Shown here: positions 8,201 through 52,776 of the stretch, piece by piece
Position numbering within the stretch: the stretch's first letter is position 1
Layout of the letters: every line of letters begins with the position of its first letter
IMG/VR virus record: IMGVR_UViG_3300046167_000888
DNA length: 64,000 nt
DNA from: a virus
Strand: one strand, 5' to 3'
The notes under the pieces: model-generated
What the model was told of the DNA's origin: nothing
Seen by the model: the letters and a program-made list of their open reading frames with translations, nothing else
Database searches by the model: none
Position numbers and translations under genes: made by a program

Positions 8201-10371
8201 AGGACAAAAAGGTACTAAAGGTGATACTTTAGAAAAAGGACAAAAAGGTGCACAAGGTGAAACTGGAGAAAAAGGAGCACAAGGTGAAACAGGACAGAAA
8301 GGAGCACAAGGTGAAACTGGTACAAAAGGTGCCTCAAGGAGAAGATGGTGTAAAAGGAGCACAAGGAGAAGATGGTGTAAAAGGTGCTCAAGGAGAAACT
8401 GGAGAAAATGCTCCATTACAAGGTAATGTAGACAATAATCTAGTTACTATGACTGGTGGGACAGCATTATCAGGTTCAGCCAAATTTACCTATGATGGTA
8501 TAGATACTGTTTTAGATGGTACTAGTGGAGGAGGTCATTTTATAACTAAAACTCCATCACAATATAGTGCAGTTTCTGAATATGGATTAGGACATGAAGT
8601 ATTTTCTGCAAATTTAGATAGCGGTTTAATTGCTACATTTAGTAGTTCTTTTGCTACATCAGATAATGTACCAATAATTCAAATGGTAGATAAATCTACT
8701 GGTGGTACAGGAACTAATGTTGGTACATTTAGATTTAATAAAGACACTGGTCATTTTATATTAACACCTAGTGGTTCTGGTAAAACAACTTTCCTTTTAC
8801 TTACAGGTAGTTTATCTGTTTCACAATCTGTATTTTTCCCAGGAGTTGCTGAAAATACTAATAACCTTAAAACTTTAATGATAGACCCTACTTCGGGTAA
8901 ATTAGGATATACAGGTTCATATGGTGGAGGTGGAGGTGGTACTCCAATACAAGGAAACGTTAATAATAACGTATTAACAGCTACAGGAACAACATCTATA
9001 TCAGGTTCAGCTAAATTTACTTATGATGGAGCAGGTGATGTTCACTTAGAAGGTAAATTACAAATTGACCAACAAACTATAACTATAGCTGGAGGTAATG
9101 TTTCATGGAATGTAAATAATGGCTCAAATGCTACTGTTACATTAGGATCAGGTACTAATACATTAGCAATGTCAAATTGGGAAACAGGTGATACTGGTGT
9201 ATTAGTTGTTAAACAAGATGGAACTGGAGGAAGAACATTAGATATTGATTTAAGTGGTAATACTGTTTATTTAGGTAATACTTCATATACACCTTCAACA
9301 GCTGCTAATGCGGTTGATGTATTAGGTTGGTATTATGATGGTTCAAAATATTATGTAACAATAGGTTACGGTGATTCATCAACAGTAGGAGCTAAAGGTG
9401 CTCCAGGAGATTCAGGAGCTCAAGGTGCAGCAGGACCAAAAGGGGTTACAGGACCTCAAGGTGATGATGGTGCTCAAGGATTAGCAGGACCAATTGGTAA
9501 TCAAGGAAATACAGGTCCACAAGGTGCAACAGGACCTCAAGGCTTATTAGGACCAATAGGAAACATTGGACCAATTGGTAATACTGGACCTCAAGGTGCT
9601 GATGGAAATATAGGACCAATAGGAAATATAGGACCTATAGGAAACATTGGACCAATTGGTAATACTGGACCTCAAGGTGCAGACGGTAATATTGGACCAA
9701 TAGGTAATATAGGACCAATAGGAAATACAGGTCCTCAAGGTGCAGATGGAGATAAAGGACCAGCTGGTGATGCAGGACCTCAAGGTGCAGACGGTGGTAT
9801 TGGACCAATTGGTAATACAGGACCACAAGGTGCAACAGGAACACAAGGTGCAGTAGGTGGATCAGGAGCTGAATTTACAGTAACAGGAACAACCACAGAT
9901 GGTGTTGTTACTTTTGATTCAGCAAATGCTTTAACTACTGAAGCAAATATGACATTTGATGGTACTACAGCATATATTAATGGTGCTTTAGGTGTAGGAA
10001 CAGATAATCCAACAACTGTAGGTTTAATAGAAGCTACTAATGATGTTGTAGCATATTACTCATCAGATGAAAGATTAAAAGAAAATATTAAACCTATTCC
10101 ATGGGCATTAGATAAATTAATGAAAATAAATGGTGTAACATTTGATTGGAAACCATTAACTGAAGAACAAAAAATACATATTCATGGACATGAAGGGCAT
10201 GATGTAGGTGTAATAGCTCAAGAAATAGAAAAAGTATTACCTGAAGTTGTAACTACAAGAGATAATGGATATAAAGCTGTTAAATATGAAAAAATAGTTG
10301 CTCTATTAATTGAAGCTATTAAAGAACAACAATCAGAAATAGATCAATTAAAAGATAAAATTAATGGCTAA
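5298..10371 (+). CDS. Collagen-like fibre protein 2 with C-terminal peptidase S74 chaperone (about 1690 aa; apparent +1 insertion near 8332)
   Basis: Long Gly-X-Y runs with two copies of a ~125-aa globular insert; C-terminal YYSSDERLKENI...GVIAQE...VKYEKIVALLIEAIKE; ggt gcc tca agg is ggt gct caa gga plus an extra C. Confidence 0.85.
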
Positions 10372-11629
10372 TCTTAATTTTTTCAGAATAATGGCCGGTA
10401 ACGGTTCTAATGTTAGTTCTCAAGATATTCCTTGTAATGCTGGAAGTATTAATTTTGATGGAGGACCAGGTATATTTTATGCTACCGCTGTTGTATTAGG
10501 AACTGGTATAGGCCCTATAACTGCATCATTTGAAGCTCGAAATGTTCCAGATGGATTTAGATTAGTATGGAGCGGATCTACAGTAGCAAATTCTTTATTT
10601 GTAGGAGATCGATTAGACACAGCAAGTTTATATAATGGATATACAGGGTCAATAAGTAATGTAACTTCTTTAACTCGAAAAAATTGGAACCAACAAGCAG
10701 ATACTTTTGTAAATGCTTCAGCAGAAAGTGTAACTTATACTAGTGCTTCATTCCCTCCATTTCCTGGCAATCCTTTCACAAAAACAAGAGGAAATACATC
10801 TACAGTTGTAGGTGAAAGAGTTAATGGTCAAGGAAACCATGGGGCACAAAAAGGCGTACTTAATGCTTTTCCCCAATTTTCATCTTCATGTACAAATGGA
10901 CAAGTTAAATTATGTTTTTTTAAACATACAACTGAACCAACAGAATTTGAACTAATAATTGATGGTCCAGATGGTGGTACACTTTGGGATTTACTTAGTT
11001 TAACTTGCCCAGGTAATGATACTTCACTCCATTCTTCTTCAATTATGGATAAAGATGGTGATATAGTTGAAATATACCATACATCACCATCATTTGACTT
11101 AGATGTAGGAATGACATTATATGAAAATAGTGCATTAACTACTAAATTTATATCAAGTGGGACTTATAGTACTAGTTCATTTTGGGGTAGTGATAATTCT
11201 ATGTTAGTATCAGGTAGTACTATATTAGGAACAGCATATCCTTTTAATGGAGGTAGTGGTATATGCTTTAAATCCGCTTTAAATACAGGATATTCCTATA
11301 TTACATTAGCTGATGATGGAGTAATTACTGCTAGAAGTTGTACTACAACATCATTCCCATTAGCTGATGGTTTAACAGAATTCTATGTAACAGATCAGGC
11401 GAGTAAACTTCCTTTCGCATGTCAGCAACCAATTACAACAACACGTTTCCACGATGGTTCAGGATTAATACCTGTTGTAGGTGATATAGTGTATACTGAT
11501 AGTGGAGGAACTACAGTATTAGCCAATTCAAAAAGAGGAGCTTCTTCTTTTAATTCAGGTAATTCAATTTATGGTTTTGAAACTGATAGTAATGGAGATG
11601 TTACCGATACGCAAACCTGTATACCATAA
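10364..11629 (+). CDS. Putative fibre-tip/adhesin structural protein
   Basis: 421 aa, S/T/G-rich with cysteines; two related modules (DLDVGMTLYENSALTT and IPVVGDIVYTDSGGTT); overlaps the fibre 2 stop. Confidence 0.5.
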   Translation: MANLNFFRIMAGNGSNVSSQDIPCNAGSINFDGGPGIFYATAVVLGTGIGPITASFEARNVPDGFRLVWSGSTVANSLFVGDRLDTASLYNGYTGSISNVTSLTRKNWNQQADTFVNASAESVTYTSASFPPFPGNPFTKTRGNTSTVVGERVNGQGNHGAQKGVLNAFPQFSSSCTNGQVKLCFFKHTTEPTEFELIIDGPDGGTLWDLLSLTCPGNDTSLHSSSIMDKDGDIVEIYHTSPSFDLDVGMTLYENSALTTKFISSGTYSTSSFWGSDNSMLVSGSTILGTAYPFNGGSGICFKSALNTGYSYITLADDGVITARSCTTTSFPLADGLTEFYVTDQASKLPFACQQPITTTRFHDGSGLIPVVGDIVYTDSGGTTVLANSKRGASSFNSGNSIYGFETDSNGDVTDTQTCIP

Positions 11630-12198: not shown

Positions 12199-12245
12199 AT
12201 TATAGGCCATAACGGAAGTGGGCTCAAGGAGTAACCAACCATAAT
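12199..12245 (+). other. Candidate structured RNA in the 5' leader of fibre 3
   Basis: GC-richer island that can fold into a three-way junction: ttatagg/ccataa, cc-ataac-gg, ctc-aag-gag. Confidence 0.35.
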
Positions 12246-12260
12246 TAAAAAGATTTTAAA

Positions 12261-15200
12261 ATGCCAAATTGGAAAAAAGTAATAGTTTCAGGAAGTGATG
12301 CCTCCCTAAACAATATCTCAAGTGAAAATATAACAGTAGAATCTACTGTTACTTCTTTAAATGTTAATACCACAAACATTTCAGCATCAAAATATTTTGT
12401 AGAACCAACAGGTTCAGGTTCAGTACCTGCAAAATCTTACCAAATTCCATTTGTTGATACATCTTCAGCAGACAATTATGGCGGCTTATATAAAGATAAT
12501 CAATCCAAATTAGAGTGGACACCAGCAGGTGAATTAACTGTAATTGGAAATATTGTTGCTGGTGGAACAGGATTCATAACTGGTAGTAATGTTAATGCAT
12601 CAACAAATGTAACAGTAGGTGGTCAAACCAATACTGCTAATTTAAGAATTAACTCAATCCCAACAGGTTCAGATCAAAATAAAATTGTAGTTGTTGGAGA
12701 TGATGGTAGTACATTTTTTAGAACAAATTTATCATTAACAGGTGCTCAAGGAGCAACTGGACAACAAGGTTTAACAGGTGCAATAGGACCAAAAGGAGCA
12801 CAAGGTGATAAAGGTGCAATAGGACCACTTGGTCCTCAAGGTAACGCAGGTAATGATGGTGATGATGGAGCACAAGGTACAACAGGACAAAAAGGTGTAA
12901 CAGGACCATTAGGACCTCAAGGTAATAAAGGTGATGTAGGACCTCTTGGACCACAAGGTAATCAAGGTGTTCAAGGTACAACCGGACAAAAAGGTGTAAC
13001 TGGACCACTTGGACCTCAAGGAAATCAAGGTAATGCAGGTAATGATGGAGCTCAAGGTACAACTGGAGCAACAGGACCTTTAGGACCACAAGGAAATCAA
13101 GGAAATACAGGACCACAAGGTAATGTAGGACCAACTGGTGATGATGGTGAAAAAGGTGATACTGGTGCTCAAGGCACAACAGGACCACTTGGACCTCAAG
13201 GTAATCAAGGTAATCAAGGTAACGTTGGACCAACAGGAGCACAAGGTGCAGTAGGAGCACAAGGAGATACAGGACCAACAGGTGCAACCGGATTACAAGG
13301 AACAACAGGTGCATTAGGACCAATTGGACCTCAAGGTAACCAAGGTAACCAAGGTGTACAAGGTACAAATGGAGAAAAAGGAGCAACAGGACCATTAGGA
13401 CCTCAAGGTAATCAAGGTATTCAAGGACAAAAAGGTGAAACAGGACCACTTGGACCACAAGGTAATGCAGGTAATGATGGAGCTCAAGGTACAACCGGAG
13501 CAACAGGACCTTTAGGACCACTTGGACCACAAGGTAATCAAGGTAACCAAGGTGTACAAGGTGCAACAGGACCACAAGGAACTAAAGGACAAAAAGGTGA
13601 AGTAGGAGCTAAAGGTGATACAGGACCTCAAGGATCTAAAGGTTCAACAGGACCATTAGGACCTCAAGGTAACCAAGGTGCACAAGGTACAACAGGTACA
13701 ACAGGACCTCTTGGACCACAAGGTAACGTAGGACCAGCAGGTACAGATGGAGATAAAGGTGCAATAGGACCAACAGGTGCTCAAGGAAATCAAGGTAACC
13801 AAGGTATACAAGGTACAACTGGACAAAAAGGTGCAACTGGACCTTTAGGACCACAAGGTAATCAGGGTAACCAAGGTATACAAGGTATAACAGGTGCAAC
13901 AGGACCTCTTGGACCACAAGGTAATCAAGGAAATACAGGACCAACAGGTGCTCAAGGAACAACAGGTGCATTAGGACCAATTGGACCTCAAGGTAACGTT
14001 GGACCAACAGGAGCACAAGGTAATGCAGGTAATGATGGTGAAAAAGGTTTAAAAGGTGAAGTAGGGGCACAAGGTAATAAAGGTGCAACAGGACCATTAG
14101 GACCTCAAGGTAATATAGGTAATGTAGGACCTCAAGGTGAAAAAGGTGCAACAGGACCTCAAGGAAATACAGGTGCTCAAGGTAATCAAGGTAACCAAGG
14201 TAACGTTGGTGTACAAGGTACCACAGGTGCTCAAGGTAACGTAGGACCTGAAGGACAAAAAGGACCACAGGGTACAACAGGTACAACAGGACCACAAGGT
14301 AACCAAGGTAATAAAGGTGCTACGGGACCATTAGGACCATTAGGACCTCAAGGTAATCAAGGAAATACAGGACCACAAGGTAATAAAGGACAAAAAGGTG
14401 AAATAGGTGCTCAAGGTACAGATGGTAACTTCGGTGGTAACTCATTCGATTATACATTTGATACAAGTACAACAGCAGGAGATCCAGGCCAAGGTAAAAT
14501 AAGATTATCATCAACAAATCAAAATACTTCACTTGAAGGATATATTGATGCAACAGATGATGATGGGAAACGATATTCAATCAACACTTGAAACATTAGA
14601 TAGTGTTACTTCAGCTATTAAAGGTCACATTAGAATCTCAAATAGAACAGATGCAACACAATTCTTAACATTCGCAATTACAGATCTTCAAGATCAAGGT
14701 GATTGGTGGCAGTTAGATTTAACTAATGAAGCAAGTTCAGCAACATCACCATTCTCAAATAACGAAGATATTATTTGTTCATTTGTAGCAGTAGGTGATA
14801 AAGGAGATAAAGGACAAAAAGGACAAACTGGAGCAGTAGGACCAACAGGACCACAAGGTAACGTAGGACCAACAGGACCACAAGGAAATAAAGGACAAAA
14901 AGGTGAAGTAGGAGCTCAAGGTAACGTAGGACCTCAAGGTAACGTAGGTGCTCAAGGAGCTACTGGTTCAACTGGTGCTCAAGGAAATAAAGGTAGCTTA
15001 GGACCACAAGGTAATGTTGGTGCTCAAGGAGCTACTGGAGCAATTGGACCACAAGGTAATACAGGTGCACAGGGTAATGTTGGACCAACAGGACCTCAAG
15101 GAAATAAAGGTGCAACAGGACCTCAAGGTAATACAGGTGCTCAAGGTGCAACAGGACCTCAAGGTAACCAAGGTAATCAAGGTAATGTAGGACCAACAGG

Positions 15201-28091: not shown

Positions 28092-29000
28092 ATGGCTTTA
28101 TATCCAAATGCGGCTGATCCAGGAAATTGGCAATCTTTTGTACTAAGAGAAGATGTTAAAACTCTTCCTGTTTCAGAACAAAGAAAAAAATATCTAACGG
28201 AGCAATTACAATTTGAAGATTTTATGGCTCAACAAAGATACTTACAATCAATGTCAATTAATTCCTTAACTAACCAATTACATCAAGGTGGAGGATTTGC
28301 AACTAACCCAGTCTTATCAGCTAATTTTAATGGTACAATTCAGGCTATAACAGGAAACACTACTCAAATTGACTTTTTATTTAAAGAACCCCTCACAGTA
28401 GATTCATCAGGTGGTGCTCCATATATTGATGCAATAAATGACCAATTAGGTGGTGGTACAGCATCTACAGTAAGATTTACTTACTATGAATCAAGTGGAA
28501 ATACAAATATGAGATTTCAGCATGTACACCCAGCAAATGCAGGAGGTATAGCAGCAGCTACAATTGCAGCAGGTGTTGATCTAGTAGCTTCAGCAACTTC
28601 AACATTAAGTGGAGCTTCAGGAGGCCCACAAACAGATGTACCATTTGCTTACCAAGTAGGAACAGGTGTTTCAGATGAAGGACAAAATATAACAGCTGAT
28701 GTTATTGTAGCTGGTGGTGGAACTGCATTATCAAGTATAACATTTAAAACATCCGAATCAGCAGCCCTTTATTACCCTGGAAATCAATTAGTAGTAGATG
28801 CAGCAGATATTGGAGCTGGAGGAACAGGAACAGTAACTGTTACTTTAACAGCTAATGATTTACAAGGAGATACTTTAACATTAGTAGGAACTAATATAGA
28901 ACTAAATGGAGCTGTAGTTTATAGTCAAGCAAACGGACCTGATTACCCACTAGATCCAACATATGAATCTACAAGTACATTAGCTTCATCCGCTATATAA
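28092..29000 (+). CDS. Stand-alone late-type gene, probable virion (decoration-like) protein
   Basis: Own ATATGTATAA motif at 28059 and own terminator; G/A/T/S-rich C-terminal part. Confidence 0.45.
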   Translation: MALYPNAADPGNWQSFVLREDVKTLPVSEQRKKYLTEQLQFEDFMAQQRYLQSMSINSLTNQLHQGGGFATNPVLSANFNGTIQAITGNTTQIDFLFKEPLTVDSSGGAPYIDAINDQLGGGTASTVRFTYYESSGNTNMRFQHVHPANAGGIAAATIAAGVDLVASATSTLSGASGGPQTDVPFAYQVGTGVSDEGQNITADVIVAGGGTALSSITFKTSESAALYYPGNQLVVDAADIGAGGTGTVTVTLTANDLQGDTLTLVGTNIELNGAVVYSQANGPDYPLDPTYESTSTLASSAI

Positions 29001-29023: not shown

Positions 29024-29052
29024 GTGGGGAGGCTAGGCTTCCCCACTTTTTC
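29024..29052 (+). terminator. Intrinsic terminator
   Basis: gtggggaggc-tag-gcttccccac followed by ttttt. Confidence 0.8.
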
Positions 29053-29078
29053 TTCGTATATTTATAACAAAATATATC

Positions 29079-29876
29079 ATGATAAAACTGTACGACCTTA
29101 TCAAAGAACAAATTGAAAGACCAAAAGCAATAATTCTAGCTGGTGCTCCTGGTGCTGGTAAAGGTTATGTTTTAAGCGGTTTAAATCTTGATGGTATCAA
29201 AGTACTAAATGTAGATAATGCCTATATTGAACTACTAAAGAAAGCCAATGTATCATTAGATTTAAAAAATGCTGGTCCTGAAGATAGAAGCGAAGCAGCT
29301 AAAGCAATGGCTGCAGCTAATAAAGAATTTAAAGGTAAAGTAGCAGCTACAATAGAAGGTAAAGAATCATTTATTTTAGATGGTACAGCGGCGTCAATCA
29401 AACAAACAGCTAATTTAAAAAAGGAATTAGAAGAAGCAGGGTATGAAGTATTTATGCTTTATGTTTATACTGATTTAGAACGTTCACTTAGACAAAACCA
29501 AGATAGATTTGATAAATCAGGTGGTGAAGATAGAAGTTTAGCACCTGCTATAGTAATGAGAACATGGGCTTCAGTTACTGATAACTATAAAGCATATGAA
29601 GCAATGTTTGACAATAATTTTGTATCTGTTGCTAACACATTAGAAGACGAAAAATTAACTGATATAGCTGATATAGTAAAAAAATATTTAGATCCTTTTA
29701 AACCACAAGGTACAAAACCTAAAGATGCTAAAGCACAAGCAAGATCAGATAAATCAAAAGCAGCATTAAATGATAAATTAAAAGAATTACTATCAGATGA
29801 ACAAGTTCAATTGATAATTAATAATTCAGTATCTAAAGAAGAAGCACAAGCAAAAATAAAACAATTTTTAAGTTAA
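29079..29876 (+). CDS. P-loop kinase (zeta-toxin/AAA_33-like)
   Basis: ILAGAPGAGKG Walker A, LNVDN, FILDGT; leader MIKLYDLIKE. Confidence 0.7.
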   Translation: MIKLYDLIKEQIERPKAIILAGAPGAGKGYVLSGLNLDGIKVLNVDNAYIELLKKANVSLDLKNAGPEDRSEAAKAMAAANKEFKGKVAATIEGKESFILDGTAASIKQTANLKKELEEAGYEVFMLYVYTDLERSLRQNQDRFDKSGGEDRSLAPAIVMRTWASVTDNYKAYEAMFDNNFVSVANTLEDEKLTDIADIVKKYLDPFKPQGTKPKDAKAQARSDKSKAALNDKLKELLSDEQVQLIINNSVSKEEAQAKIKQFLS

Positions 29877-31468
29877 TGGGTTTAGTTAAAGAATTAATAC
29901 GTCCTTTATTAGAGGAAGAAAAAAAAGTAGTAGCTGTTTACGGTGGTGGTTTTAAACCTCCAACTGCGGGGCACTTTGAGGTTGTAGATCAAGCACTAAA
30001 AGAAAACCCTAATATAGACGAGTTTATTATTTTAATTGGTGGTAAAGAAAGAGATGGTATTTCACCTGAAGAATCTTTAATTATATGGGACATTTATAAA
30101 CAATACTTACCTATTAAAGTAGAAGTAAAGTTAAGTTCTAAACCACCGATTCAAGCAGTATACAATTATGCTAAAGAACACCCAAATGAAGAAGTATTAT
30201 TTGTAATTGGCGCTAGAGAAGGTAATGAAGATGATTTTTCTGATATAGCTAAAAGAACAAAATCATTAGATAAATATGATAATTTAGAATTACGTACTAT
30301 TATTACACAAGGTGGAGCATCAGGTACAGCAGCTAGAAATGCAGCTAAAATATCATCTGAAAAATTAAGACCACTATTACCTAAACAATTAAAAGATGAA
30401 GAGGTAGAAGAAATATTTACTATTATGAGTAATGTAGTAAAAGAAAATGATCCTGAAGATGGTAAAGCAGCTCCATATGGTTCAGGGTATAAAAAATTAA
30501 ATGAAGTATTAAATCCATCTACTTTTGATTATAAACCTATAATTAAATCATTAACTAAAAGTATGGAAGATGATGGTTTACAATTAAAACCGTATCCAAA
30601 AATTACTTTTATACATGATGAAGAATCAAATGCTGAAGACTTTTTTGGAAAAACAGCTTATTATGATCCTAATAATAACGAAGTAGTATTATATACATTA
30701 GGTAGACACCCTAAAGATATTATGAGATCGTATGCTCATGAATTGATTCATGTTCACCAAAACCATGAAGATAGATTAGATGGTATTAATACAACTAATG
30801 TTAATCAAGATGATTATTTAGAACAAATTGAACGTGAAGCATATGAAAATGGAAACATTATGTTCAGAAGCTGGACTAATAAAACATTAAATGAAGGTAA
30901 GAAAAAAGATCCATTTGGTATAAATGCCTATGCTAGAGAATTAGCTATGGGTTTAGAAGAACAAGAAGAAGGAGAACATTACATTTATTTAGATATGGAT
31001 GGTGTAGTAGCAGATTTTGATAAACGATTTAAAGATCTATCAGGTATGTTACCTCAAGAATATGTTGATAAAAATGGTTTAAATGCTTTTTGGGATTTAA
31101 TTGATGAAAAACATAAGGTAGCATTTTGGAGAGGTATTGAATTGATGCCTGGTGCTCAAAAATTAGTTAAATTTGTAGAGCAATATCCATTTGAAATGTT
31201 AACTGCTCCATCAGTAAAAAAACAAAGTATTATCGGAAAAGGCTTGTGGGTTAAAGATAAAGTTGGTACCTTGTATTCAACGAAGCCCAAAGTAACATAT
31301 AGAAAAGCTAAATTAAAACATACAGTTAAACCACAATTAACTAAATATGATATTTTAATAGATGATAAAGCAAGTACTATTGATACATGGAATAATTCAG
31401 GAGGTACAGCTATATTATATCAATCAGCTGATCAAGTAATTAATGATTTAAAACAATTAGGTTTATGA
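29876..31468 (+). CDS. Three-domain protein: HIGH-family nucleotidyltransferase + HExxH metallopeptidase-like + HAD 5'(3')-nucleotidase
   Basis: YGGGFKPPTAGH...SGTAAR; AHELIHVHQ...EREAYE; YLDMDGVVADF...ILIDD. Confidence 0.75.
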   Translation: MGLVKELIRPLLEEEKKVVAVYGGGFKPPTAGHFEVVDQALKENPNIDEFIILIGGKERDGISPEESLIIWDIYKQYLPIKVEVKLSSKPPIQAVYNYAKEHPNEEVLFVIGAREGNEDDFSDIAKRTKSLDKYDNLELRTIITQGGASGTAARNAAKISSEKLRPLLPKQLKDEEVEEIFTIMSNVVKENDPEDGKAAPYGSGYKKLNEVLNPSTFDYKPIIKSLTKSMEDDGLQLKPYPKITFIHDEESNAEDFFGKTAYYDPNNNEVVLYTLGRHPKDIMRSYAHELIHVHQNHEDRLDGINTTNVNQDDYLEQIEREAYENGNIMFRSWTNKTLNEGKKKDPFGINAYARELAMGLEEQEEGEHYIYLDMDGVVADFDKRFKDLSGMLPQEYVDKNGLNAFWDLIDEKHKVAFWRGIELMPGAQKLVKFVEQYPFEMLTAPSVKKQSIIGKGLWVKDKVGTLYSTKPKVTYRKAKLKHTVKPQLTKYDILIDDKASTIDTWNNSGGTAILYQSADQVINDLKQLGL

Positions 31469-32043
31469 GTGGGAAAGTCCAAGGATTAAATAGAGAATTT
31501 GAAAAGAAGGATGTTGAAAGAATGAGAAACCTCATTCAAGGAAAGTATGGAGAAAAAAATGGTACAAGTGTAGGATTCTCTACACCACATAAAGATTATG
31601 AAGAAGGAGATATTTGGGAATCTGATGGTCGTACTTGGACTATTAAAAATGGAATTAAACAAAATATTACAAAATTAGATAAAGCAAAAAAAGCACATAC
31701 AATGCCTTTATTTTGCCCTAAGTGTGGGTCACTTATGAATAATCGTAATGATAAATCATTTTATAATATCCACAGAACTTGTTTTAAATGTGTTATTAAG
31801 AAAGAAGATGAAATGAAGAGAAATGGTACATTTGAAGCATATCGTCAAGCAATTAAAAACGATGAAATCGATCATAGAATAGAAGATTTTAAAGTTTGGA
31901 TGAAAGAAAAAGTTAGTGAGTCAAATAACCAATATGTATCAGAGGCGGGTGATGTTGAAACTTGGAGAGGTAAAGTTAACAAGGAACAATTAGATGCCAA
32001 TATGAAAGAAGTTATTGAGTATTTAAAATCACTAAAAAAATAA
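31465..32043 (+). CDS. Hypothetical protein with Zn-ribbon
   Basis: CPKC...CFKC. Confidence 0.6.
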   Translation: MSGKVQGLNREFEKKDVERMRNLIQGKYGEKNGTSVGFSTPHKDYEEGDIWESDGRTWTIKNGIKQNITKLDKAKKAHTMPLFCPKCGSLMNNRNDKSFYNIHRTCFKCVIKKEDEMKRNGTFEAYRQAIKNDEIDHRIEDFKVWMKEKVSESNNQYVSEAGDVETWRGKVNKEQLDANMKEVIEYLKSLKK

Positions 32044-32047
32044 GATT

Positions 32048-32377
32048 ATGAAAGACAATTTTGATCATTATGCATGGAACCAAAAAAGACATTTGGCTGA
32101 AGGGTTAAATGATCGCATTGGTAAAATAGAAATAATATACACAGAACCAGGACAAGGACGAAGACTATATGCTGTAAAAATAGATGATTCTGTTGGAAAA
32201 AGAATTGATAAAGTTTATCAAGACGATGCAAATGCTATACTTAGATACTTAGGTATTGAAGGTGAATTACCTCGAAGCTTAGGTTTTGATGATGATAAAC
32301 TATTAGATAGTATTGTAAAACAATTACAAGATATGGGTATTGAAGCTGATTGGTGTGATTGTATGGATATAAGTTAA
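32048..32377 (+). CDS. Hypothetical protein with degenerate DNFD...LAEG leader
   Basis: MKDNFDHYAWNQKRHLAEG. Confidence 0.6.
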   Translation: MKDNFDHYAWNQKRHLAEGLNDRIGKIEIIYTEPGQGRRLYAVKIDDSVGKRIDKVYQDDANAILRYLGIEGELPRSLGFDDDKLLDSIVKQLQDMGIEADWCDCMDIS

Positions 32378-33816: not shown

Positions 33817-34728
33817 ATGGACAACTTTGACTTAAAAAAATACCTAGCTGAAGGAAGAATCAACCAAGATTCTCAAGAGCTTAACGAGAAAAAACAAGAC
33901 TCTAAAAAAGGTAATAAGGAAGAACAAAAAAGAATGGAAGGCGCTATTAGAGATAATAGAGATCACGTTAAATCTTTAGAAAAAGATATTAAAGCCGACC
34001 AGAAAAAACTTAAAAAACTAAAAGCCGACGAACCTAAAGATGTTAACGAATCTGAAGTAACAGAAGATCGTGCAGCATCAGCAGCAAGAGGATTAGAAAA
34101 CATCATTGACTTTATAACAAAAAATGCTGATAAAGGTAAAGATTGGTGGAAGAAAAATATTTCAAAAAATATTGAAATAGGATCTATGTTACAACAAATG
34201 AAAGAAATAGAAGTAGAAGAAGGATATGGCAAGCCAATGTATGATGAAGATGATACTAAGCCTATGAAAGAAGATGAAAGAACTGATGCTGAAGAAGAAG
34301 GATATGAAGATGGATTCAAAGATGCTAAAAAAGATATGAAAGATGCTATGAGCAAAATGAAAATTTCTGAGCTTAAAGCAAAAATTAGAGAAGATATCTT
34401 AGCTACACTAGCTGAAGCTGATGAAGTAACTGAAGCAGAAGAAGATGTTGATGTTGATATTGACGATGAAGTAGAAGCAGACGTTAATGTAGATGTTAAA
34501 GATACAGTAGATGTAGATGCTGAAGGAGACGAAATTGATATTGTAAAACCAGCTGTTAAAGCAAAAGTAGAAGTTGGTTTATCTCCAGAAGAAGAAATAG
34601 TACAAGATTCTTTAAAAGCTGCAATGGATGCCGCTGATGCCATAGGAAACGATAAATTAGCTGATCAGATTGGAAATACAATTACATTTTTCACTAGAGA
34701 ATATGTAGTTGGAAGAAACACTGATTAA
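33817..34728 (+). CDS. Putative internal head protein with MDNFDLKKYLAEG leader
   Basis: Late motif at 33792; acidic; shares EDxRTDAEEEGYEDG with the scaffold protein. Confidence 0.6.
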   Translation: MDNFDLKKYLAEGRINQDSQELNEKKQDSKKGNKEEQKRMEGAIRDNRDHVKSLEKDIKADQKKLKKLKADEPKDVNESEVTEDRAASAARGLENIIDFITKNADKGKDWWKKNISKNIEIGSMLQQMKEIEVEEGYGKPMYDEDDTKPMKEDERTDAEEEGYEDGFKDAKKDMKDAMSKMKISELKAKIREDILATLAEADEVTEAEEDVDVDIDDEVEADVNVDVKDTVDVDAEGDEIDIVKPAVKAKVEVGLSPEEEIVQDSLKAAMDAADAIGNDKLADQIGNTITFFTREYVVGRNTD

Positions 34729-37916: not shown

Positions 37917-38549
37917 ATGTGTAAAAAATGTGGATGTAATACTTGTGAAGTAAAAATAAGAGGACCACTCTTAACAGAAAATAAAGTTAAATCTTTATTA
38001 TCTGAAAACTTATCTTATCATATTGATAATAACATTTCATTAATGGAAAATGTATTCAGAATTGGTTCTGATGCTCATTTATCTATGATTAAAGAAGCAA
38101 GAAAATTATATTCACGTGGCGTACTTGATTTATGTGAAGAAGATGAAGGGTTAATGGAAACACATTTAGGTGAATTTGATTTATTTGAAAATGAAATTGT
38201 ACCTTTAGATTTACCTATGATCGATCTAAATGAAGATGAGCAATTAGACGAAAAGAAAAAGGCTAAGAAAAAGAAAAAAGATCCACCAATTGGAAAACCA
38301 AAACGTGGTGGTTCAAAAGCATATTACGTTTATGTAAGAGATCCTAAAACTAAAAGAATTAAAAAAGTATCATTTGGATCAGGTGGTTTAAGAGCTAAAA
38401 TTAGAAATCCTAAAGCACGTAAAGCATTTGCTGCTAGACATAAATGCTCTCAAAAAACAGATAGAACAAAACCATCATATTGGTCTTGTAGATTACCTAG
38501 GTACGCAAGTCAATTAGGTTTAGGTGCTAATATGAATACATTTTGGTAA
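37917..38549 (+). CDS. Hypothetical protein with Cys-rich N-terminus and highly basic C-terminal module
   Basis: MCKKCGCNTC...; after QLDE: KKKAKKKKKDPPIGKPKRGGSKAYYVYV...FAARHKC...YWSC. Confidence 0.6.
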   Translation: MCKKCGCNTCEVKIRGPLLTENKVKSLLSENLSYHIDNNISLMENVFRIGSDAHLSMIKEARKLYSRGVLDLCEEDEGLMETHLGEFDLFENEIVPLDLPMIDLNEDEQLDEKKKAKKKKKDPPIGKPKRGGSKAYYVYVRDPKTKRIKKVSFGSGGLRAKIRNPKARKAFAARHKCSQKTDRTKPSYWSCRLPRYASQLGLGANMNTFW

Positions 38550-38550
38550 A

Positions 38551-39105
38551 ATGAACGAATTAAAAGTAAAAAAAACAATGGATGACGTTCTTGAACCTAA
38601 ACAGTTCAATGATCGTCAATCTTATCCTCAAAAGGAAACAGCAGCTATGCGAGCTCCAGGTACTGGAGAAGATGCAGAAGCAAGAGCACCTTACTATATT
38701 CGTTACATGAAAACCTTAGATGAGGTACTTACTGAAAAAAAGAAAAGAGACAGATGTCTTAGAATAGCAGATAGAAAATTTGATAAACCTTCAGCATACA
38801 AATCAGGTGCTGTAGTAAGATGTCGTAAAGGCGATATTTGGAAAGGTGTAAAAGAAGCGGTTGTTAATCAATTAACTGAAGATGAATCATTACGTAAATG
38901 GTTTAAACGTTCAGGTCCCTCAGGTAAAGAAGGTGGATGGGTTGACTGTAATACAGGAAGAAAAGACCCTAAAACAGGAAAAATGAAGTACAAAGCTTGT
39001 GGGAGAAAAAAAGGAGAAAAAAGAGCAAAATACCCGTCTTGTAGACCTACACCTGGAAAATGTAAAGATAAAGGAAAAGGAAAAAAATGGGGAAAAACGA
39101 AATAA
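38551..39105 (+). CDS. Hypothetical protein with two basic Cys-containing modules
   Basis: VLTE|KKKRDRC...SAYKSGAVVRCRKG and QLTE|DESLRKWF...WVDCN...YPSCRP. Confidence 0.6.
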   Translation: MNELKVKKTMDDVLEPKQFNDRQSYPQKETAAMRAPGTGEDAEARAPYYIRYMKTLDEVLTEKKKRDRCLRIADRKFDKPSAYKSGAVVRCRKGDIWKGVKEAVVNQLTEDESLRKWFKRSGPSGKEGGWVDCNTGRKDPKTGKMKYKACGRKKGEKRAKYPSCRPTPGKCKDKGKGKKWGKTK

Positions 39106-39350
39106 ATCCTTATCTTGATAAGGGTAATATAAGAACATTTTCTAAAGATGTTGATCCGATGGAATTGGTTTGGCATCAAGATGATGAAGATAGAAAAATA
39201 GAAATCCTTGAAGGCGAAGGATGGTGTATTCAACGAGATAATATGCTACCAAGATCGATGAAGAAAGGAGAAACCATATTTATAACCAAAGGTGAAGTAC
39301 ACCGAATATTAAAAGGCACAACTGATTTAAAAATAAAAATAAATGGATAA
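39087..39350 (+). CDS. Small cupin-like protein
   Basis: ELVWHQD..DR, IFITKGEVHRILKG. Confidence 0.55.
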   Translation: MGKNEINPYLDKGNIRTFSKDVDPMELVWHQDDEDRKIEILEGEGWCIQRDNMLPRSMKKGETIFITKGEVHRILKGTTDLKIKING

Positions 39351-39759
39351 CTTCGATTTAAGAAAATATTTAGCTGAAGGTAAGCTCTTTGAACAAGATA
39401 GATATAAAAAAGTAGAGGACGATGCACAAGATGGTACCTTTTATGTTTCCGGATATGATATGGAAAATGAAAGAGATATCGATGATTATTTTGTTGATCT
39501 AAATTATGGTAAATATAAATCTGCTACTCAAGAATTATTAGACCTTGCTATGGAACAAGGACACGCGTATGAAAGTATAGAAGATTATTACGAATATGTT
39601 GAAGGATTTGAAAATGATCTAAAAGATTATGCTGAAGGTGAAGAAGTACCTGATTGGAAGATGAATGATCTAGCTATGCGTTTTGGAGATGATTATAGTC
39701 AATTTTATGGTGAAGAAGAAGATGAAGACTATGAAGAAGAAGAATATGAAGATTATTAA
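39343..39759 (+). CDS. Leader-tagged acidic protein 1 (putative internal/ejected protein)
   Basis: MDNFDLRKYLAEG leader; about one third Asp/Glu, Tyr-rich. Confidence 0.7.
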   Translation: MDNFDLRKYLAEGKLFEQDRYKKVEDDAQDGTFYVSGYDMENERDIDDYFVDLNYGKYKSATQELLDLAMEQGHAYESIEDYYEYVEGFENDLKDYAEGEEVPDWKMNDLAMRFGDDYSQFYGEEEDEDYEEEEYEDY

Positions 39760-42155: not shown

Positions 42156-42686
42156 ATGAAAATAGGTTTATGCGGTACAATGAGTGTGGGGAAAACTACA
42201 CTAGTTAATGCTTTAAAACAAACAAAGCAATTTAAAGATTATATGTTTAGAACAGAACGTTCTAAGTATTTGATGGAACAAGGTATTCCACTTAATACAG
42301 ATTCAACATTAAAAGGTCAAACTATATTTTTAGCTGAACGTTGTGCTGAATTAATTCAAACAGATATTATTACAGATAGAACTGTTATTGATGTTATGGC
42401 ATTTACTATGAATGCTAAATCAATACCTTATCAGGATAAGGAAGCATTTGAAGCTTATGCTAAAGATTTTATAGGGGAATATGATTATATATTTTATATT
42501 TCTCCATATGGGATAGATGTTGAAGATAATGGAGTACGTGAAACAGATGAACATTATAGAGATTTAATTGATTTTACTATTACTACATTAATTAAAAGAT
42601 ATGGACATAAAGCAGGTAAATTAGAAAAAATATCTGGATCTACAGAGGAACGAATTGAACAAATATTGAATATTACAGGCCTTTAA
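42156..42686 (+). CDS. NadR/Ttd14-type AAA (P-loop) nucleotide-kinase-like protein
   Basis: MKIGLCGTMSVGKTTL, ITDRTVID, YDYIFY, EDNGVR. Confidence 0.75.
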   Translation: MKIGLCGTMSVGKTTLVNALKQTKQFKDYMFRTERSKYLMEQGIPLNTDSTLKGQTIFLAERCAELIQTDIITDRTVIDVMAFTMNAKSIPYQDKEAFEAYAKDFIGEYDYIFYISPYGIDVEDNGVRETDEHYRDLIDFTITTLIKRYGHKAGKLEKISGSTEERIEQILNITGL

Positions 42687-42713: not shown

Positions 42714-43319
42714 ATGAAAAGATCCGAATTAAATCAGTTTATAAAAGAAAACATTATAGAAACTTTAACTGAAAGCCCTTCATCTGAAGAAGTAAAAATG
42801 GCAAGACAAGCTGTGGCTAGGTTTATGAAGTATAGAAATGTATCACAAGAGGAAGCTGTTCGTGATTTAATTAACGCTTTAAAGGAAATCCAACCTAAAG
42901 AAGATGATCAACGATATATAGACTATCTAAGAAGAAGTGGTAGAGATAAAGAAGCAGATAAATTATCAAAAAACAACCCTGCTTTAAAAGAAGAACTTCC
43001 ATCTAAAGAAGAAGTAGAAGATACTACTGCTGCTGTTCAAGCACTTAAAAAAGAATTAGAGGATCTAAAGGAAGATGATGATATTGATGATAAAGATGCT
43101 ATAGCACAAGCTAAAGCAGCTAGAGGTAAACATAAAAAATTAGATATTGCAGTTGAAGCATTAAAGGATATTAAAACTAAAATGCAATCATTAGCAAGAA
43201 AATATAGTTCAGCTGATGAAGTAGAAAAAGAAAAAATTAAAGATGATTTAAAAGCTAAAACTGCTAAGAAAAAAGAATTAGAGTCTTTAGTTGCTAAATT
43301 AGAAAAAGATGTTGTCTAG
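42714..43319 (+). CDS. Putative internal head protein
   Basis: Late motif at 42688; MKRSELNQFIKENIIETLTE leader; repeated LKE junctions. Confidence 0.55.
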   Translation: MKRSELNQFIKENIIETLTESPSSEEVKMARQAVARFMKYRNVSQEEAVRDLINALKEIQPKEDDQRYIDYLRRSGRDKEADKLSKNNPALKEELPSKEEVEDTTAAVQALKKELEDLKEDDDIDDKDAIAQAKAARGKHKKLDIAVEALKDIKTKMQSLARKYSSADEVEKEKIKDDLKAKTAKKKELESLVAKLEKDVV

Positions 43320-49390: not shown

Positions 49391-50860
49391 ATGAAAACAC
49401 TACAAGAACAATACAACCAAATCCAAAAAGGTGAAGGTCGTAAAGATTTATTTTTAAAAGAAGCTAAATCAAAATATCCAAATTTGATTTCAAATATTAC
49501 TTCATTTAGCGATGCTGAAAAAATCCTAAAAAGTAAAAGTGTCATCAATGAAGAACTAGGTGGTGTAGTTACATTACAACCAGTAAACAAATTAACTTCT
49601 GAAGACTTTAACCCAAATAAACAAGCTTGGGAAAACAAGTTCGAACAGTTTTTAGCTGAAGCAGGTAAAAAAGAATTAAATCCTATTGTTGATACTAAAG
49701 TAGAAGAAGAAATCAATGATAAAGCAGGTGATGAAAAAATTAAAGCTGAAGAAAAAGAAACAGCTAAAGAAGTAATCAATACTCAAGATAGAAATTATGA
49801 TTACTCTCCTAAAGTAGATAACATTAATAATGTTAATGCTCAGGAAATGATGAATGGTGTATACTGTGAAATTAAAGAAAACCCAAGCTTATCACTAGAA
49901 GAAGCACAAGCTAAAGTAATTAAAAATTTAGCTAAAGACCAAATGTATTATGTAAAAGAAGGTCAATTTGGAGTTGCGGGGTTAGGATACTCAGAACAAA
50001 AAGTTGAAGAAAATAGTGGTAAAACATATGGTGGTAGTGGATACAGTGATAAAGTAAAAGAAGGTAAAGCTGATATGGTACCAGTTAAAGAATCAGTAGA
50101 CACAAAAATTAAATCTTTAATTAAAGAACATTTAGGTGGAGTTGTTACTACAGGTAACCCAAATTCATTAGCAGCACAATCAGGAAATGCTATTAGACAA
50201 ATGATGCAAGAAGAATGGCAAGAAGAAGTAGGTTCTCAATACCATGATTCATTATATGCTGAAGGTGAAAAAAGACCTGATTATCCAGATGTAGATGGAG
50301 ATGGTGATACTAAAGAACCAATGGAAAAAGCACTTAAGGATAAAAAAGAAAAAAAGAAAAAAGTAAAAAAAGAATCAATTGACTCTAAATTAGCTGAAAT
50401 AGGTAAAGAAGCAGAAGCTGTAAAATTAGAAGCTCAATTAGATTATATCCATGAGTATATTCAAGAAAAAGTAGATAGAGTTGCTTCAATTAATGAAGAT
50501 GAAAATCTTAAAGAATTAATTGATAAAAAGAAAATGAAAGACATGCAAAGAGAAATCAAGCTTTTAGAAAAGAAAAAAGCAGCGATGGAAAAAATCTATG
50601 AAAAGTCTTGTGGTAAAAAATATTCTAAAAAGGAAATGGTAGATGAAGTTAATGACGAAGCTGAACTACCTATGGATGAAAGTACAGTAAATGAGGGTAC
50701 TTCTACTCCAGAAATGTCTGCTGCAATAGCTGAAATTAAAGCTAAACTAGAAGAAGGTGGTTACCCATTTGATCAATGTTTAGATGATAATGAACCTAAA
50801 TACGGAAAAGAAGGAGCAGCTAAAATATGTGGTAGTATTAAAGCAAAACACGGAGAATAA
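49391..50860 (+). CDS. Modular putative internal head/core protein
   Basis: MKTLQEQ start (compare T4 internal-protein MKTYQEF); many [LIV]xE sites; DVDGDGD loop. Confidence 0.55.
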   Translation: MKTLQEQYNQIQKGEGRKDLFLKEAKSKYPNLISNITSFSDAEKILKSKSVINEELGGVVTLQPVNKLTSEDFNPNKQAWENKFEQFLAEAGKKELNPIVDTKVEEEINDKAGDEKIKAEEKETAKEVINTQDRNYDYSPKVDNINNVNAQEMMNGVYCEIKENPSLSLEEAQAKVIKNLAKDQMYYVKEGQFGVAGLGYSEQKVEENSGKTYGGSGYSDKVKEGKADMVPVKESVDTKIKSLIKEHLGGVVTTGNPNSLAAQSGNAIRQMMQEEWQEEVGSQYHDSLYAEGEKRPDYPDVDGDGDTKEPMEKALKDKKEKKKKVKKESIDSKLAEIGKEAEAVKLEAQLDYIHEYIQEKVDRVASINEDENLKELIDKKKMKDMQREIKLLEKKKAAMEKIYEKSCGKKYSKKEMVDEVNDEAELPMDESTVNEGTSTPEMSAAIAEIKAKLEEGGYPFDQCLDDNEPKYGKEGAAKICGSIKAKHGE

Positions 50861-50861
50861 A

Positions 50862-51467
50862 ATGAGTAGAAAACTACTAATAGAAACTCAACCTCTTAAA
50901 TTTTCCCCAAAAGTACTAACAGAAAATGTTAGCAAGGAAAATGGTAACCTTATTGTTGAAGGCGTCTTAGCTACAGCAGAGGTTAAAAATGGTAACGGTC
51001 GTTACTATGCTAAAGAGTTGTGGGAAAGAGAAATGGATAAATACCAAACTCTTATTGATGAAAGAAGATCAATGGGAGAATTAGATCATCCAGAATCACA
51101 AGTTATAAATTTACAAAATGTATCCCATGTTATTACTGAATGGGGTTGGGATGGAGACCATGTAATGGGTAAAATAGAAATATTACCAACACCATCAGGA
51201 AAAATACTTTTAGAACTTATTAAAAATGGTGTTACAGTAGGTGTATCATCTAGAGGAATGGGTTCATTAGAACAAAGAGGTAATGTAATGGAAGTACAAG
51301 ATGACTTCGAATTATTATGTTGGGATTTTGTTTCTACACCATCCAATCCAGGATCATTTATGGGTGTTTTACAAGAAGGTAAACAACACGTAGAATATGA
51401 TTATAATAAAGTTAATAGTGTAATACATGAAATCCTTTGTTCTAAAGGTTCTTGTCCAATTCTGTAA
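50862..51467 (+). CDS. Prohead core protease (T4 gp21-like)
   Basis: KNGNGRYY, MGELDHP, NVSH, ILPTPSG, GVSSRGMGS, WDFVSTPS; likely start MSRKLLIE at 50862. Confidence 0.92.
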   Translation: MSRKLLIETQPLKFSPKVLTENVSKENGNLIVEGVLATAEVKNGNGRYYAKELWEREMDKYQTLIDERRSMGELDHPESQVINLQNVSHVITEWGWDGDHVMGKIEILPTPSGKILLELIKNGVTVGVSSRGMGSLEQRGNVMEVQDDFELLCWDFVSTPSNPGSFMGVLQEGKQHVEYDYNKVNSVIHEILCSKGSCPIL

Positions 51468-51588: not shown

Positions 51589-52776
51589 ATGGCAACAAAC
51601 AGAGATTTGCTAAAGGAAGCTATTGCTGATGCTAAAACCGTTAAGGAAACAGCTATCGCAAACGCTAAACTTGCTCTAGAAGAAGCTTTTACTCCATTCT
51701 TAAAAGATCAATTATCTGCTAAATTGCAGGAAATGGATAAAGATGAGGATGATGTAAAAGAAGAAGTAGAAGCAGTTGAAGAAATGGATGCTCCTAGTTT
51801 TGAAAGAAAAAATTCTCCGGCTGGTGATTCTTTAAAAGATCTTGCGCCAAAAAAAGTAGGTCAATCTACAGTGCAAGAAGATAAAAAAGAAGAATTAGAT
51901 GAGGAAGAAATTAATCTTGATGAACTATTAGCAGAGCTTGAAGATTCTAAAGAAATTGACGAAGCAAAAAAGGACGACGACAAGGAAGACGTTAAAGAAG
52001 ACGCTAGAACTGACGCCGAAGAAGAAGGCTACGAAGATGGAATGAAGGACGAAAAAGAAGACATGGAAGACGAGGAAATTGACCTTGAAGATATGTCAGA
52101 AGACGACCTTAAAGGATTTATCGAGGATGTCATTAAAGACATGGTCGCAGCTGGAGAAATCGAGCCTGGCGATGAATTCGTAGAAGACGAAGTTGAAGTT
52201 GAAGACGTTGAAGACGTAGAAGTTGAAGACGACGTAGACGTAGACATTGAAATCGACGAAGCTAAGAAAAAAGAAGGTGAAGAAGTAAAAGAAGCAAAAG
52301 AAGAAGAAAAAGTAGACGAAGGCTACAGTAACAAAGACGGAGATAAAGATGATTCCCCAACTGAGAAAAAATCTCAAAAAGGAAGATTTGCTAAAAACGG
52401 AGATGTTTCTGAAGAATTAGAAACTGCTTTAGCTGAAATTAACTCATTGAAAGATGAATTAAATGAAGTTAACTTACTAAATGCTAAATTACTTTACACT
52501 AATAAAATTTTCAAAGCGAAAAACTTAAACGAAAGTAAAAAAATCAAAGTGTTAAAAGCATTTGACAAAGCGAAAAACGTTGAACAAGCAAAAACTATTT
52601 TCGAAACATTGAATGAAGGAATTACATCAAGTGTAACTACTCCAACAATCAATGAATCAGTTAAAAAAGGTGCTGCTTCAAAAGCTAGTGGTTTAGAACC
52701 AAAAGCAACAAAACAACCAATTATCGAGTCTAATGATGTTTATAACAGAATGAGAAAACTTGCTGGGTTATTGTAA
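51589..52776 (+). CDS. Prohead scaffold protein
   Basis: Very acidic coiled-coil protein between protease and capsid gene; LNEVNLLNAKLLYTNK; C-terminal RMRKLAGL. Confidence 0.8.
   Translation: MATNRDLLKEAIADAKTVKETAIANAKLALEEAFTPFLKDQLSAKLQEMDKDEDDVKEEVEAVEEMDAPSFERKNSPAGDSLKDLAPKKVGQSTVQEDKKEELDEEEINLDELLAELEDSKEIDEAKKDDDKEDVKEDARTDAEEEGYEDGMKDEKEDMEDEEIDLEDMSEDDLKGFIEDVIKDMVAAGEIEPGDEFVEDEVEVEDVEDVEVEDDVDVDIEIDEAKKKEGEEVKEAKEEEKVDEGYSNKDGDKDDSPTEKKSQKGRFAKNGDVSEELETALAEINSLKDELNEVNLLNAKLLYTNKIFKAKNLNESKKIKVLKAFDKAKNVEQAKTIFETLNEGITSSVTTPTINESVKKGAASKASGLEPKATKQPIIESNDVYNRMRKLAGLL

Follow-up and report, generated by a model that had tools for sequence, protein, structure and literature searches.

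Comparison with described systems

The polyvalent proteins and the protease-processed head proteins of T4 and the giant phages are the described systems closest to the protein studied here. It is encoded on the + strand at 29876..31468 of IMG/VR virus record IMGVR_UViG_3300046167_000888, which was analysed as one stretch of 64,000 nucleotides (the window), and we designate it P0001. Its 530 residues make up three domains and two disordered linkers, and a P-loop kinase gene lies directly upstream. On balance, we lean towards the reading that P0001 and the kinase are polyvalent cargo that would be made late, targeted to the prohead, cut by an S77 protease at [LIV]xE motifs and injected as separate enzymes.

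In Iyer et al. 2017 (PMC5512222), polyvalent proteins are described as unrelated effector-type domains joined in one chain with a zincin-like metallopeptidase (MPTase) hub, with cassette variability and predicted delivery with the DNA. The family of P0001 resembles them in these respects, and the cargo of its larger members (ART-PolyVal, ParB, GNAT, Pol-beta nucleotidyltransferase (NTase) and zeta-like kinase domains) is also alike. It differs from the proteins described there in having a fixed frame of HIGH-type nucleotidyltransferase (NT), MPTase and HAD domains with two defined cargo slots, in lacking a MuF or portal fusion, and in bearing a gp21-type head protease motif at its junctions. 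A term search of the same text found no discussion of the NT and HAD domains.

The likeness to the T4 internal proteins IPI-III and to Alt (PMC9026906; PMC8442874) lies in the S77 protease, in a kinase leader that follows the format of the T4 capsid targeting sequence (CTS), and in the predicted packing and injection. Each of the T4 proteins is a single chain whose propeptide is terminal, and gp21 trims both ends of Alt (PMC9026906; PMC8442874), whereas here several enzymes would arise from one precursor through internal sites known from sequence alone. In the giant phages phiKZ, 201phi2-1 and SPN3US, proteases related to gp21 cut numerous head proteins after Glu within short motifs, often at multiple sites per protein, and paralogous ejection proteins have identical N-terminal propeptides in common (PMC5694885). 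Those phages differ in their P3 preference (S/A/G-x-E) and long propeptides, and no fixed frame with cargo slots is described for them (PMC5694885). Polyvalent proteins, CTS targeting with gp21 cleavage in T4, and giant-phage head proteins with several Glu sites are therefore already known. The fixed three-enzyme frame with two slots and its marine diversity were not found in the small set of papers examined, nor were gp21-type sites as module borders or the swapping of leaders.

Domain structure of P0001

The P0001 ORF (open reading frame) starts with a one-base overlap with the end of the 265-residue kinase ORF at 29876. A whole-chain AlphaFold2 model, built with 42 homologues in the alignment, has a mean pLDDT of 82 and a pTM of 0.39. 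It places domains at about residues 1–187, 212–340 and 366–530, joined by linkers at 188–211 and about 341–365 with pLDDT values below 50. The low pTM suggests a beads-on-a-string arrangement, and the model presents P0001 as three enzymes, each folded by itself, with flexible linkers between them. Linker 1 (residues 188–211; 30437..30508, + strand) is disordered, with V-K-E190 and L-N-E210 at its edges. Linker 2 (residues 341–365; 30896..30970, + strand) contains a short conserved helix and L-E-E362. They correspond to cargo slots 1 and 2 of the homologues, respectively.

An earlier sequence-only reading of this DNA had described 29876-31468 as a three-enzyme polyprotein with prohead-protease-type sites at the domain boundaries. 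ORF reading reproduced the sequence quoted there, and AlphaFold2 and Foldseek support the three domains. Its further expectations, that structure-placed domain edges would lie at [LIV]xE sites and that homologues would gain or lose domains there, also hold: the edges of the AlphaFold2 model coincide with the motif at all four linker edges, and whole domains come and go at both junctions. The domains and junction sites of that reading thus stand, but it missed that P0001 belongs to a polyvalent family with variable cargo.

The N-terminal part (residues 1–187; 29876..30436, + strand) consists of a leader helix and a HIGH-superfamily NT domain. Its Pfam match to CTP_transf_like is below threshold (residues 21–54, 14.5 bits against a cut-off of 21). 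Foldseek retrieved PPAT and NadD adenylyltransferases, including 1h1t (TMt 0.77) and 8aih, and by fold the domain scores 0.77 against PPAT and 0.60 against NadD (TMt). The near-invariant residues Gly32, His33, Ser149, Gly150 and Arg154 belong to the HIGH-type and downstream S-x-T-x-x-R motifs, which from sequence fix the superfamily only and not the substrate. An identity as NMNAT or NadR was considered and set aside: the best scores against the NCBIfam NMNAT/NadD models are 13–21 bits with cut-offs of 112–409, all far under these cut-offs, PPAT scores are similar, and the PPAT fold fits at least as well. The domain can be assigned neither to NMNAT nor to PPAT over the other.

The phage NAD+ salvage proteins NadR and NadM (PMC9503650) resemble this locus in the HIGH-superfamily adenylyltransferase fold and in an adjacent P-loop kinase gene. 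However, the neighbouring kinase here is of the Zeta_toxin type and not an AAA_28 ribosylnicotinamide kinase, and no NadV was seen within the 64-kb window. A small AAA_28 P-loop protein is encoded elsewhere in the window (42156-42686; Pfam E = 4e-10), just before a leader-bearing ORF at 42714 that has the promoter-like motif described below. This family includes the NadR kinase domain, and PHROGs labels the protein as thymidylate kinase; it is a weak hint of NAD metabolism.

The middle domain (residues 212–340; 30509..30895, + strand) ends with L-N-E340 at its C-terminal edge and appears to be a zincin-like MPTase. In Pfam it shows a weak match to Peptidase_M76 (residues 216–306). When folded alone with 91 homologues in the alignment, it gave a model with pLDDT 88 and pTM 0.84, in which a helix, a three-stranded sheet, a helix bearing HExxH and a Glu-bearing helix follow one another; this topology equals the MPTase hub as described in PMC5512222. 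His288, Glu289, His292, Glu319 and Glu321 are invariant across the family. The top structural matches are all zincins, namely PprI/IrrE, selecase, ArdC, SPRTN/Wss1, lugdulysin and anthrax LF. The scores are modest (VIA-align Z up to 7.6), and the domain alone found no Foldseek match at E ≤ 0.001. The identity as a zincin is based on the uniformity of the weak matches, the VIA-align scores and the invariant catalytic residues. The domain could act on host proteins or on cargo after injection, and both roles are discussed for the MPTase in PMC5512222.

The C-terminal domain (residues 366–530; 30971..31468 including the stop codon, + strand) resembles HAD 5'(3')-nucleotidases of the NT5C type. 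Its NT5C match in Pfam is below the cut-off (residues 370–517, 14.4 against 24.8), and it matches PHROG 2643 (deoxyribonucleotidase) with E = 3e-18. Foldseek retrieved the 5'(3')-deoxyribonucleotidases 3bwv and 2i7d, and HAD motif I (D-x-D) can be read directly as DMDG at residues 373–376. The likeness to NT5C judged from sequence is at the superfamily or subfamily level only.

Putative cleavage motifs in P0001

P0001 contains eleven [LIV]xE sites. Those ending at Glu190, Glu210, Glu340 and Glu362 each lie at most 3 residues from a linker edge, so that all four edges are covered. When eleven sites are placed at random, this arrangement has P = 2.6e-4, and residue shuffles of P0001 with a tolerance of 4 gave P = 4.5e-4. 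Three more sites, ending at Glu6, Glu13 and Glu14, lie in the N-terminal helix. The placement of the motif in P0001 is therefore non-random, while its number is ordinary. An enrichment of the motif within P0001 was also considered and rejected (20.8 per 1000 residues against a window mean of 16.5).

A fixed frame with variable cargo

The family of P0001 is large, with 3947 matches in a word-index search and 4328 in an exhaustive HMMER search. Nearly all matches are proteins from marine metagenomes, some of them on contigs of 155-166 kb, and we consider its members to be effector proteins of the polyvalent kind from marine T4-like phages whose hosts are probably Flavobacteriia. The family cores are 65-97% identical in close relatives. 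The order of the frame is invariant: NT opens the chain at its N-terminus, the zincin occupies the middle, and HAD, in members that have it, forms the C-terminus. Of the modules, the zincin is the most conserved, and it occurs in nearly all members.

Size variation is concentrated in the linkers. The inserts range from 6 to about 350 residues in slot 1 and from 17 to about 370 residues in slot 2, and among homologues whole domains are gained or lost exactly at these two junctions. Family representatives reach 1547 residues, and homologues of 1421-1547 residues hold up to about 12 modules. Among 130 cargo segments taken from homologues, Pfam identified DUF6934 (in 15 members), DUF5661, NTP_transf_2, Zeta_toxin, GNAT families, ART-PolyVal and Tox-ART-HYD1, together with REGB_T4, PolyA_pol, Fe/Mn SOD, ParB_N and GmrSD_N. 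This repertoire and the MPTase hub indicate that the family is polyvalent in the sense used in PMC5512222. P0001 itself has none of the ART-PolyVal, ParB, GNAT, Pol-beta NTase or zeta-like kinase domains of its homologues; it is the smallest, minimal form of the family, with both slots empty. A lysine-rich module of about 115 residues is among the commonest cargo cassettes.

A relative that is about 33% identical to P0001 occurs in the cultured Flavobacterium phage immuto. The immuto locus keeps the gene order except for the kinase gene, and its nucleotidase is a separate gene, split off at the point of linker 2. The 907-residue immuto protein begins with a putative Pol-beta-like nucleotidyltransferase domain, recognised by a G-S...D-x-D motif, followed by NT, zincin and a second HExxH domain; there is no separate kinase gene, and the putative N-terminal domain stands in its place. 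Immuto encodes an S77 protease, and hydrophobic-x-E sites are present at each equivalent module border. The annotation of the immuto relative as NadR/NMNAT is not established.

Junctions across the family

The association between module borders and the motif was examined in 149 diverse family representatives. Similarity between homologues ends at or just before [LIV]xE 3.9-fold more often than background, and 4.6-fold more often for breakpoints internal to cargo (at least 20 residues inside). The corresponding values for eight control motifs ([LIV]xD, [LIV]xK, [LIV]xQ, [LIV]xN, [AGS]xE, [KR]xE, [FYW]xE and E-x-[LIV]) are 0.7-1.4. Automatically called junction zones contain [LIV]xE in 42% of cases, as compared with 16% of random windows of equal width. 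The observed-to-expected ratio of the motif is 0.79, 0.37 and 0.72 in the cores, which are thus depleted, and 2.96 in short linkers. Almost all module borders that can be recognised in P0161 and P0198 are [LIV]-x-E sites. Automatic segmentation from BLAST HSP ends was too fuzzy for locating module borders and was abandoned.

The sites flanking the zincin are conserved as well. The pre-zincin site is [LIVM]-x-E in 86 of 91 diverse sequences, and Glu210 is present in 87 of the 91, although its flank is disordered and the neighbouring residues vary. Of 111 zincin domains with another module behind them, 82 have the post-zincin motif, as against 2 of 14 that end the protein (p = 2.4e-5).

DNA repeats were also observed at the junctions. 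The locus of a 1421-residue homologue (L003) carries three 64-nt direct repeats, 92-95% identical, at 10923-10986, 11364-11427 and 12225-12288. Their coding content is the zincin tail, and two cargo cassettes lie between them, which is evidence, read from the sequence, that cassettes may be gained by recombination or duplication at junctions. In the window, an 18-nt repeat (17/18 identical) lies on both sides of the zincin domain.

The upstream kinase and its leader

The gene preceding P0001 (29079..29876, + strand) encodes a 265-residue Zeta_toxin/AAA_33 P-loop kinase that matches PF06414 with 63.7 bits (gathering score 22.3, E = 2e-17). The sequence-only reading had already noted a P-loop kinase starting with MIKLYDLIKE, and this is borne out. 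These ten codons (29079-29108, + strand), which end in I-K-E, agree with the T4 CTS rule, in which positions 4/7 serve targeting and 8/10 processing (PMC9026906; PMC8442874 gives the T4 CTS sequence): hydrophobic residues occupy positions 4 and 7, Ile is at position 8 and Glu at position 10. Among 43 distinct leaders of orthologous kinases, Glu10 is found in 42 and Leu or Ile at position 8 in 41, and position 9 is free.

In five orthologues (P0362, P0283, P0345, P0356 and P0375), the usual leader of the kinase is replaced by another, with the register unchanged. One such substitute is of the MDNFD type, which heads several unrelated proteins in the 64-kb window. Both swapped-leader orthologues that were examined occupy the same operon position. 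Judged from sequence, this 10-residue leader of the kinase has the T4 CTS format and is portable and swappable. Where the kinase is embedded in the polyvalent protein P0198, the spacing between an I-K-E site and the P-loop strand is unchanged. The NT leader of the family contains [LIV]xE in 142 of 163 versions.

In the window, the very acidic and otherwise unrelated ORFs 33817-34728, 39343-39759 and 32048-32377 have a MDNFDL...LAE-G-type N-terminal leader in common, of which that at 32048 is a variant. The leader-tagged ORF 33817-34728 and the scaffold-like ORF 51589-52776 share a near-identical acidic block, which ties the leader-tagged protein to the prohead core.

Promoter-like motif and operon context

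The motif ATATTTATAACA (29058..29069, + strand) lies 10 nt before the start codon of the kinase gene. The pattern ATATTTATAAYA matches the window 10 times against 0.26 expected, always on the + strand and between genes, in agreement with the structural-gene motif that had been pointed out at 29058. Its 10-mer core occurs 14 times in the window and precedes the fibre genes, the portal, a head-core ORF, the sheath, the tube, two loci with MDNFDL leaders and the kinase; in the window it precedes no recognisable replication gene. The motif is kept 10-13 nt before the kinase start in the relatives L002, L003, L005 and L006, in which the upstream genes differ, and the exact 12-mer has no match in the immuto locus. 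These occurrences show the motif at 29058 to be promoter-like and common to the kinase-polyprotein operon and the virion genes, as far as sequence can tell.

A hairpin followed by a T-run at 29024..29051 (+ strand), read directly, resembles an intrinsic terminator and closes the upstream 302-residue ORF. This Gly/Ala/Thr-rich ORF (28092-29000) lies between the exonuclease and kinase genes and has no family match. The close relative L002 lacks it and has a 124-bp gap there, in which the same hairpin precedes the kinase gene. The ORF appears to be inserted, because it is absent from L002 and is bounded by a promoter-motif variant before it and the hairpin terminator after it. The order GIY-YIG, primase, PD-(D/E)XK exonuclease, kinase, polyvalent gene and 192-residue gene is kept in L002, L003 and L005. 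The last of these genes encodes a Zn-ribbon protein (31465..32043, + strand) and overlaps the end of the P0001 gene by 4 nt; it is located 3' of the polyvalent gene in every relative examined, including immuto.

A second pattern, CGTATATT, matches the + strand five times (26324, 29055, 36577, 40497 and 41881) against 1.55 expected, and 3 of 100 shuffles reach five matches. It may be a second promoter element of marginal significance; with so marginal an excess over chance, it was not retained as a separate promoter class.

The head module and its S77 protease

A gp21-type prohead protease is encoded at 50784/50862..51467 (+ strand), with 50862 as the likely true start. It matches Peptidase_S77 (PF03420) with E = 2.7e-24 and 86 bits against a cut-off of 27, and PHROG 207 with E = 9e-57, which settles the earlier proposal of a gp21-like protease at 50862. 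When the protein is read from Met27 (50862, immediately behind the preceding ORF's stop codon), an L-I-E site lies at residues 6–8. T4 gp21 has an LIE-9 site near its N-terminus (PMC9026906).

The head-core or scaffold-like ORFs around the protease gene contain 44-58 [LIV]xE per 1000 residues, 3-4 times denser. In the capsid protein, four sites fall within residues 1–59 and no other follows over the next 300 or so. Because this placement in the capsid protein and the head ORFs is as in T4, a gp21-like specificity is plausible for the S77 protease of this phage.

Two ORFs rich in the motif were observed in addition. The head-core ORF 49391-50860, between portal and protease, contains 23 [LIV]xE sites (47 per 1000 residues) and a Y-G-G-S-G-Y...V-K-E peptide closely like a small module in linker 1 of P0001 and in P0198. 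ORF 37917-38549 has 10 sites (48 per 1000 residues) followed by a very basic C-terminal module.

Proposed mechanism and alternative explanations

In the reading that we prefer, the kinase and the polyprotein would be made together with the virion proteins, and their N-terminal leaders would draw them into the prohead core, as for T4's internal proteins and for Alt. The S77 prohead protease would then cut after Glu at exposed [LIV]-x-E sites, yielding a separate kinase, nucleotidyltransferase, zincin and nucleotidase. The freed enzymes would be injected alongside the DNA and, as infection begins, would act on nucleotides or host factors, and the junction sequences would double as short DNA repeats for cassette exchange. 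If this is true, one late operon delivers ready-made enzymes with the DNA ahead of any phage gene expression, and T4-like phages diversify their cargo through cassettes placed between standard junctions cleavable by the head protease. Two subjects so far treated separately, polyvalent proteins and CTS targeting with gp21 cleavage in T4, would be linked, and the family would offer a large natural catalogue of candidate domains for early host takeover or counter-defence, many of them family-less (DUF6934, DUF5661). We further suggest, tentatively and with some doubt, that thousands of marine T4-like phages possess a standard delivery chassis, whose linkers would serve as both recombination and head-protease sites such that any cassette is packaged, freed and injected; such a chassis would amount to a natural plug-in system, with counter-defence proteins as its cargo. 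A cultured relative is at hand in Flavobacterium phage immuto, which grows on Flavobacterium sp. LMO8.

A number of results weigh against packaging and cleavage, and several of them speak for an ordinary cytoplasmic multi-domain nucleotide enzyme, NadR-like or of the salvage type, that is never packaged or cleaved and whose junctions are flexible linkers and recombination scars. The operon adjoins the primase and PD-(D/E)XK exonuclease genes in conserved synteny. The CGTATATT match at 29055 overlaps the motif at 29058 and the pattern also precedes the primase gene; given this primase-type element, the operon could be transcribed earlier than late. The NadR/NMNAT annotation of the immuto relative, its nucleotidase as a gene of its own, the AAA_28 kinase-like gene at 42156 and the ordinary total [LIV]xE density of P0001 point in the same direction. 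Only about 42% of the called junction zones contain the motif, and in a strict indel-edge test exact coincidence was found for 14% of left and 3% of right edges (random, about 1.7%), so the notion that every junction is a site was discarded, the enrichment being real but partial. Since junctions are copied at the DNA level in near-identical repeats and the sequences are related, the motif counts are not independent; recombination is real and explains part of the junction signal. The comparison of terminal and internal zincins is perhaps confounded by phylogeny, and the NT leader is kept also where the NT domain is internal, so that it may be a structural part of the module. Nevertheless, we regard a purely cytoplasmic enzyme as rather unlikely. 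Apart from this operon, the promoter-like motif is found only before virion and leader-tagged genes, orthologous kinases have swapped leaders, and the cargo repertoire (ART-PolyVal, ParB, RegB, GNAT) is that of injected polyvalent effectors. Furthermore, the enrichment requires Glu at P1 and a hydrophobic residue at P3, with [LIV]xD, [LIV]xQ and [LIV]xN not enriched, and the motif is depleted in folded domains and lost where the zincin ends the protein. This Glu specificity, the depletion inside domains and the loss of Glu at terminal zincins are hard to account for by recombination.

Packaged or injected chains could also be processed by the family's own zincin, in the capsid or after injection, and S77 would then be uninvolved. 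No other module is as conserved as the zincin, which has invariant catalytic residues and occurs in nearly all members, and among its structural neighbours are the MPTase domain of ArdC and minimal zincins that cleave themselves; PMC5512222 argues for autoproteolysis by such domains of polyvalent proteins. The possibility of an alternative protease counts against a role of S77, but we consider self-processing improbable. The same motif occurs in the capsid propeptide, in scaffold-like proteins and in the leaders of the zincin-free kinase and the leader-tagged ORFs, it equals the specificity of gp21-type proteases (PMC9026906), and both family-bearing phages examined also encode S77. Cleavage by the S77 prohead protease is therefore the reading that we retain.

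Other features of the window

The T4-type head module further comprises a large terminase (43982), a gp20-type portal (45587) and a gp23-type capsid protein (52812), and a tail sheath is encoded at 57595. ORF 38551-39105 has a DUF5872 match just under the cut-off. The large ORFs 3243-4838, 5298-8426 and 12261-14591 have a common N-terminus (M-A/P-x-W-+-+-[VI]-I-[VI]-S-G-S) and are probably paralogous fibre proteins; the promoter-like motif is present upstream of the fibre-like ORF at 5298.

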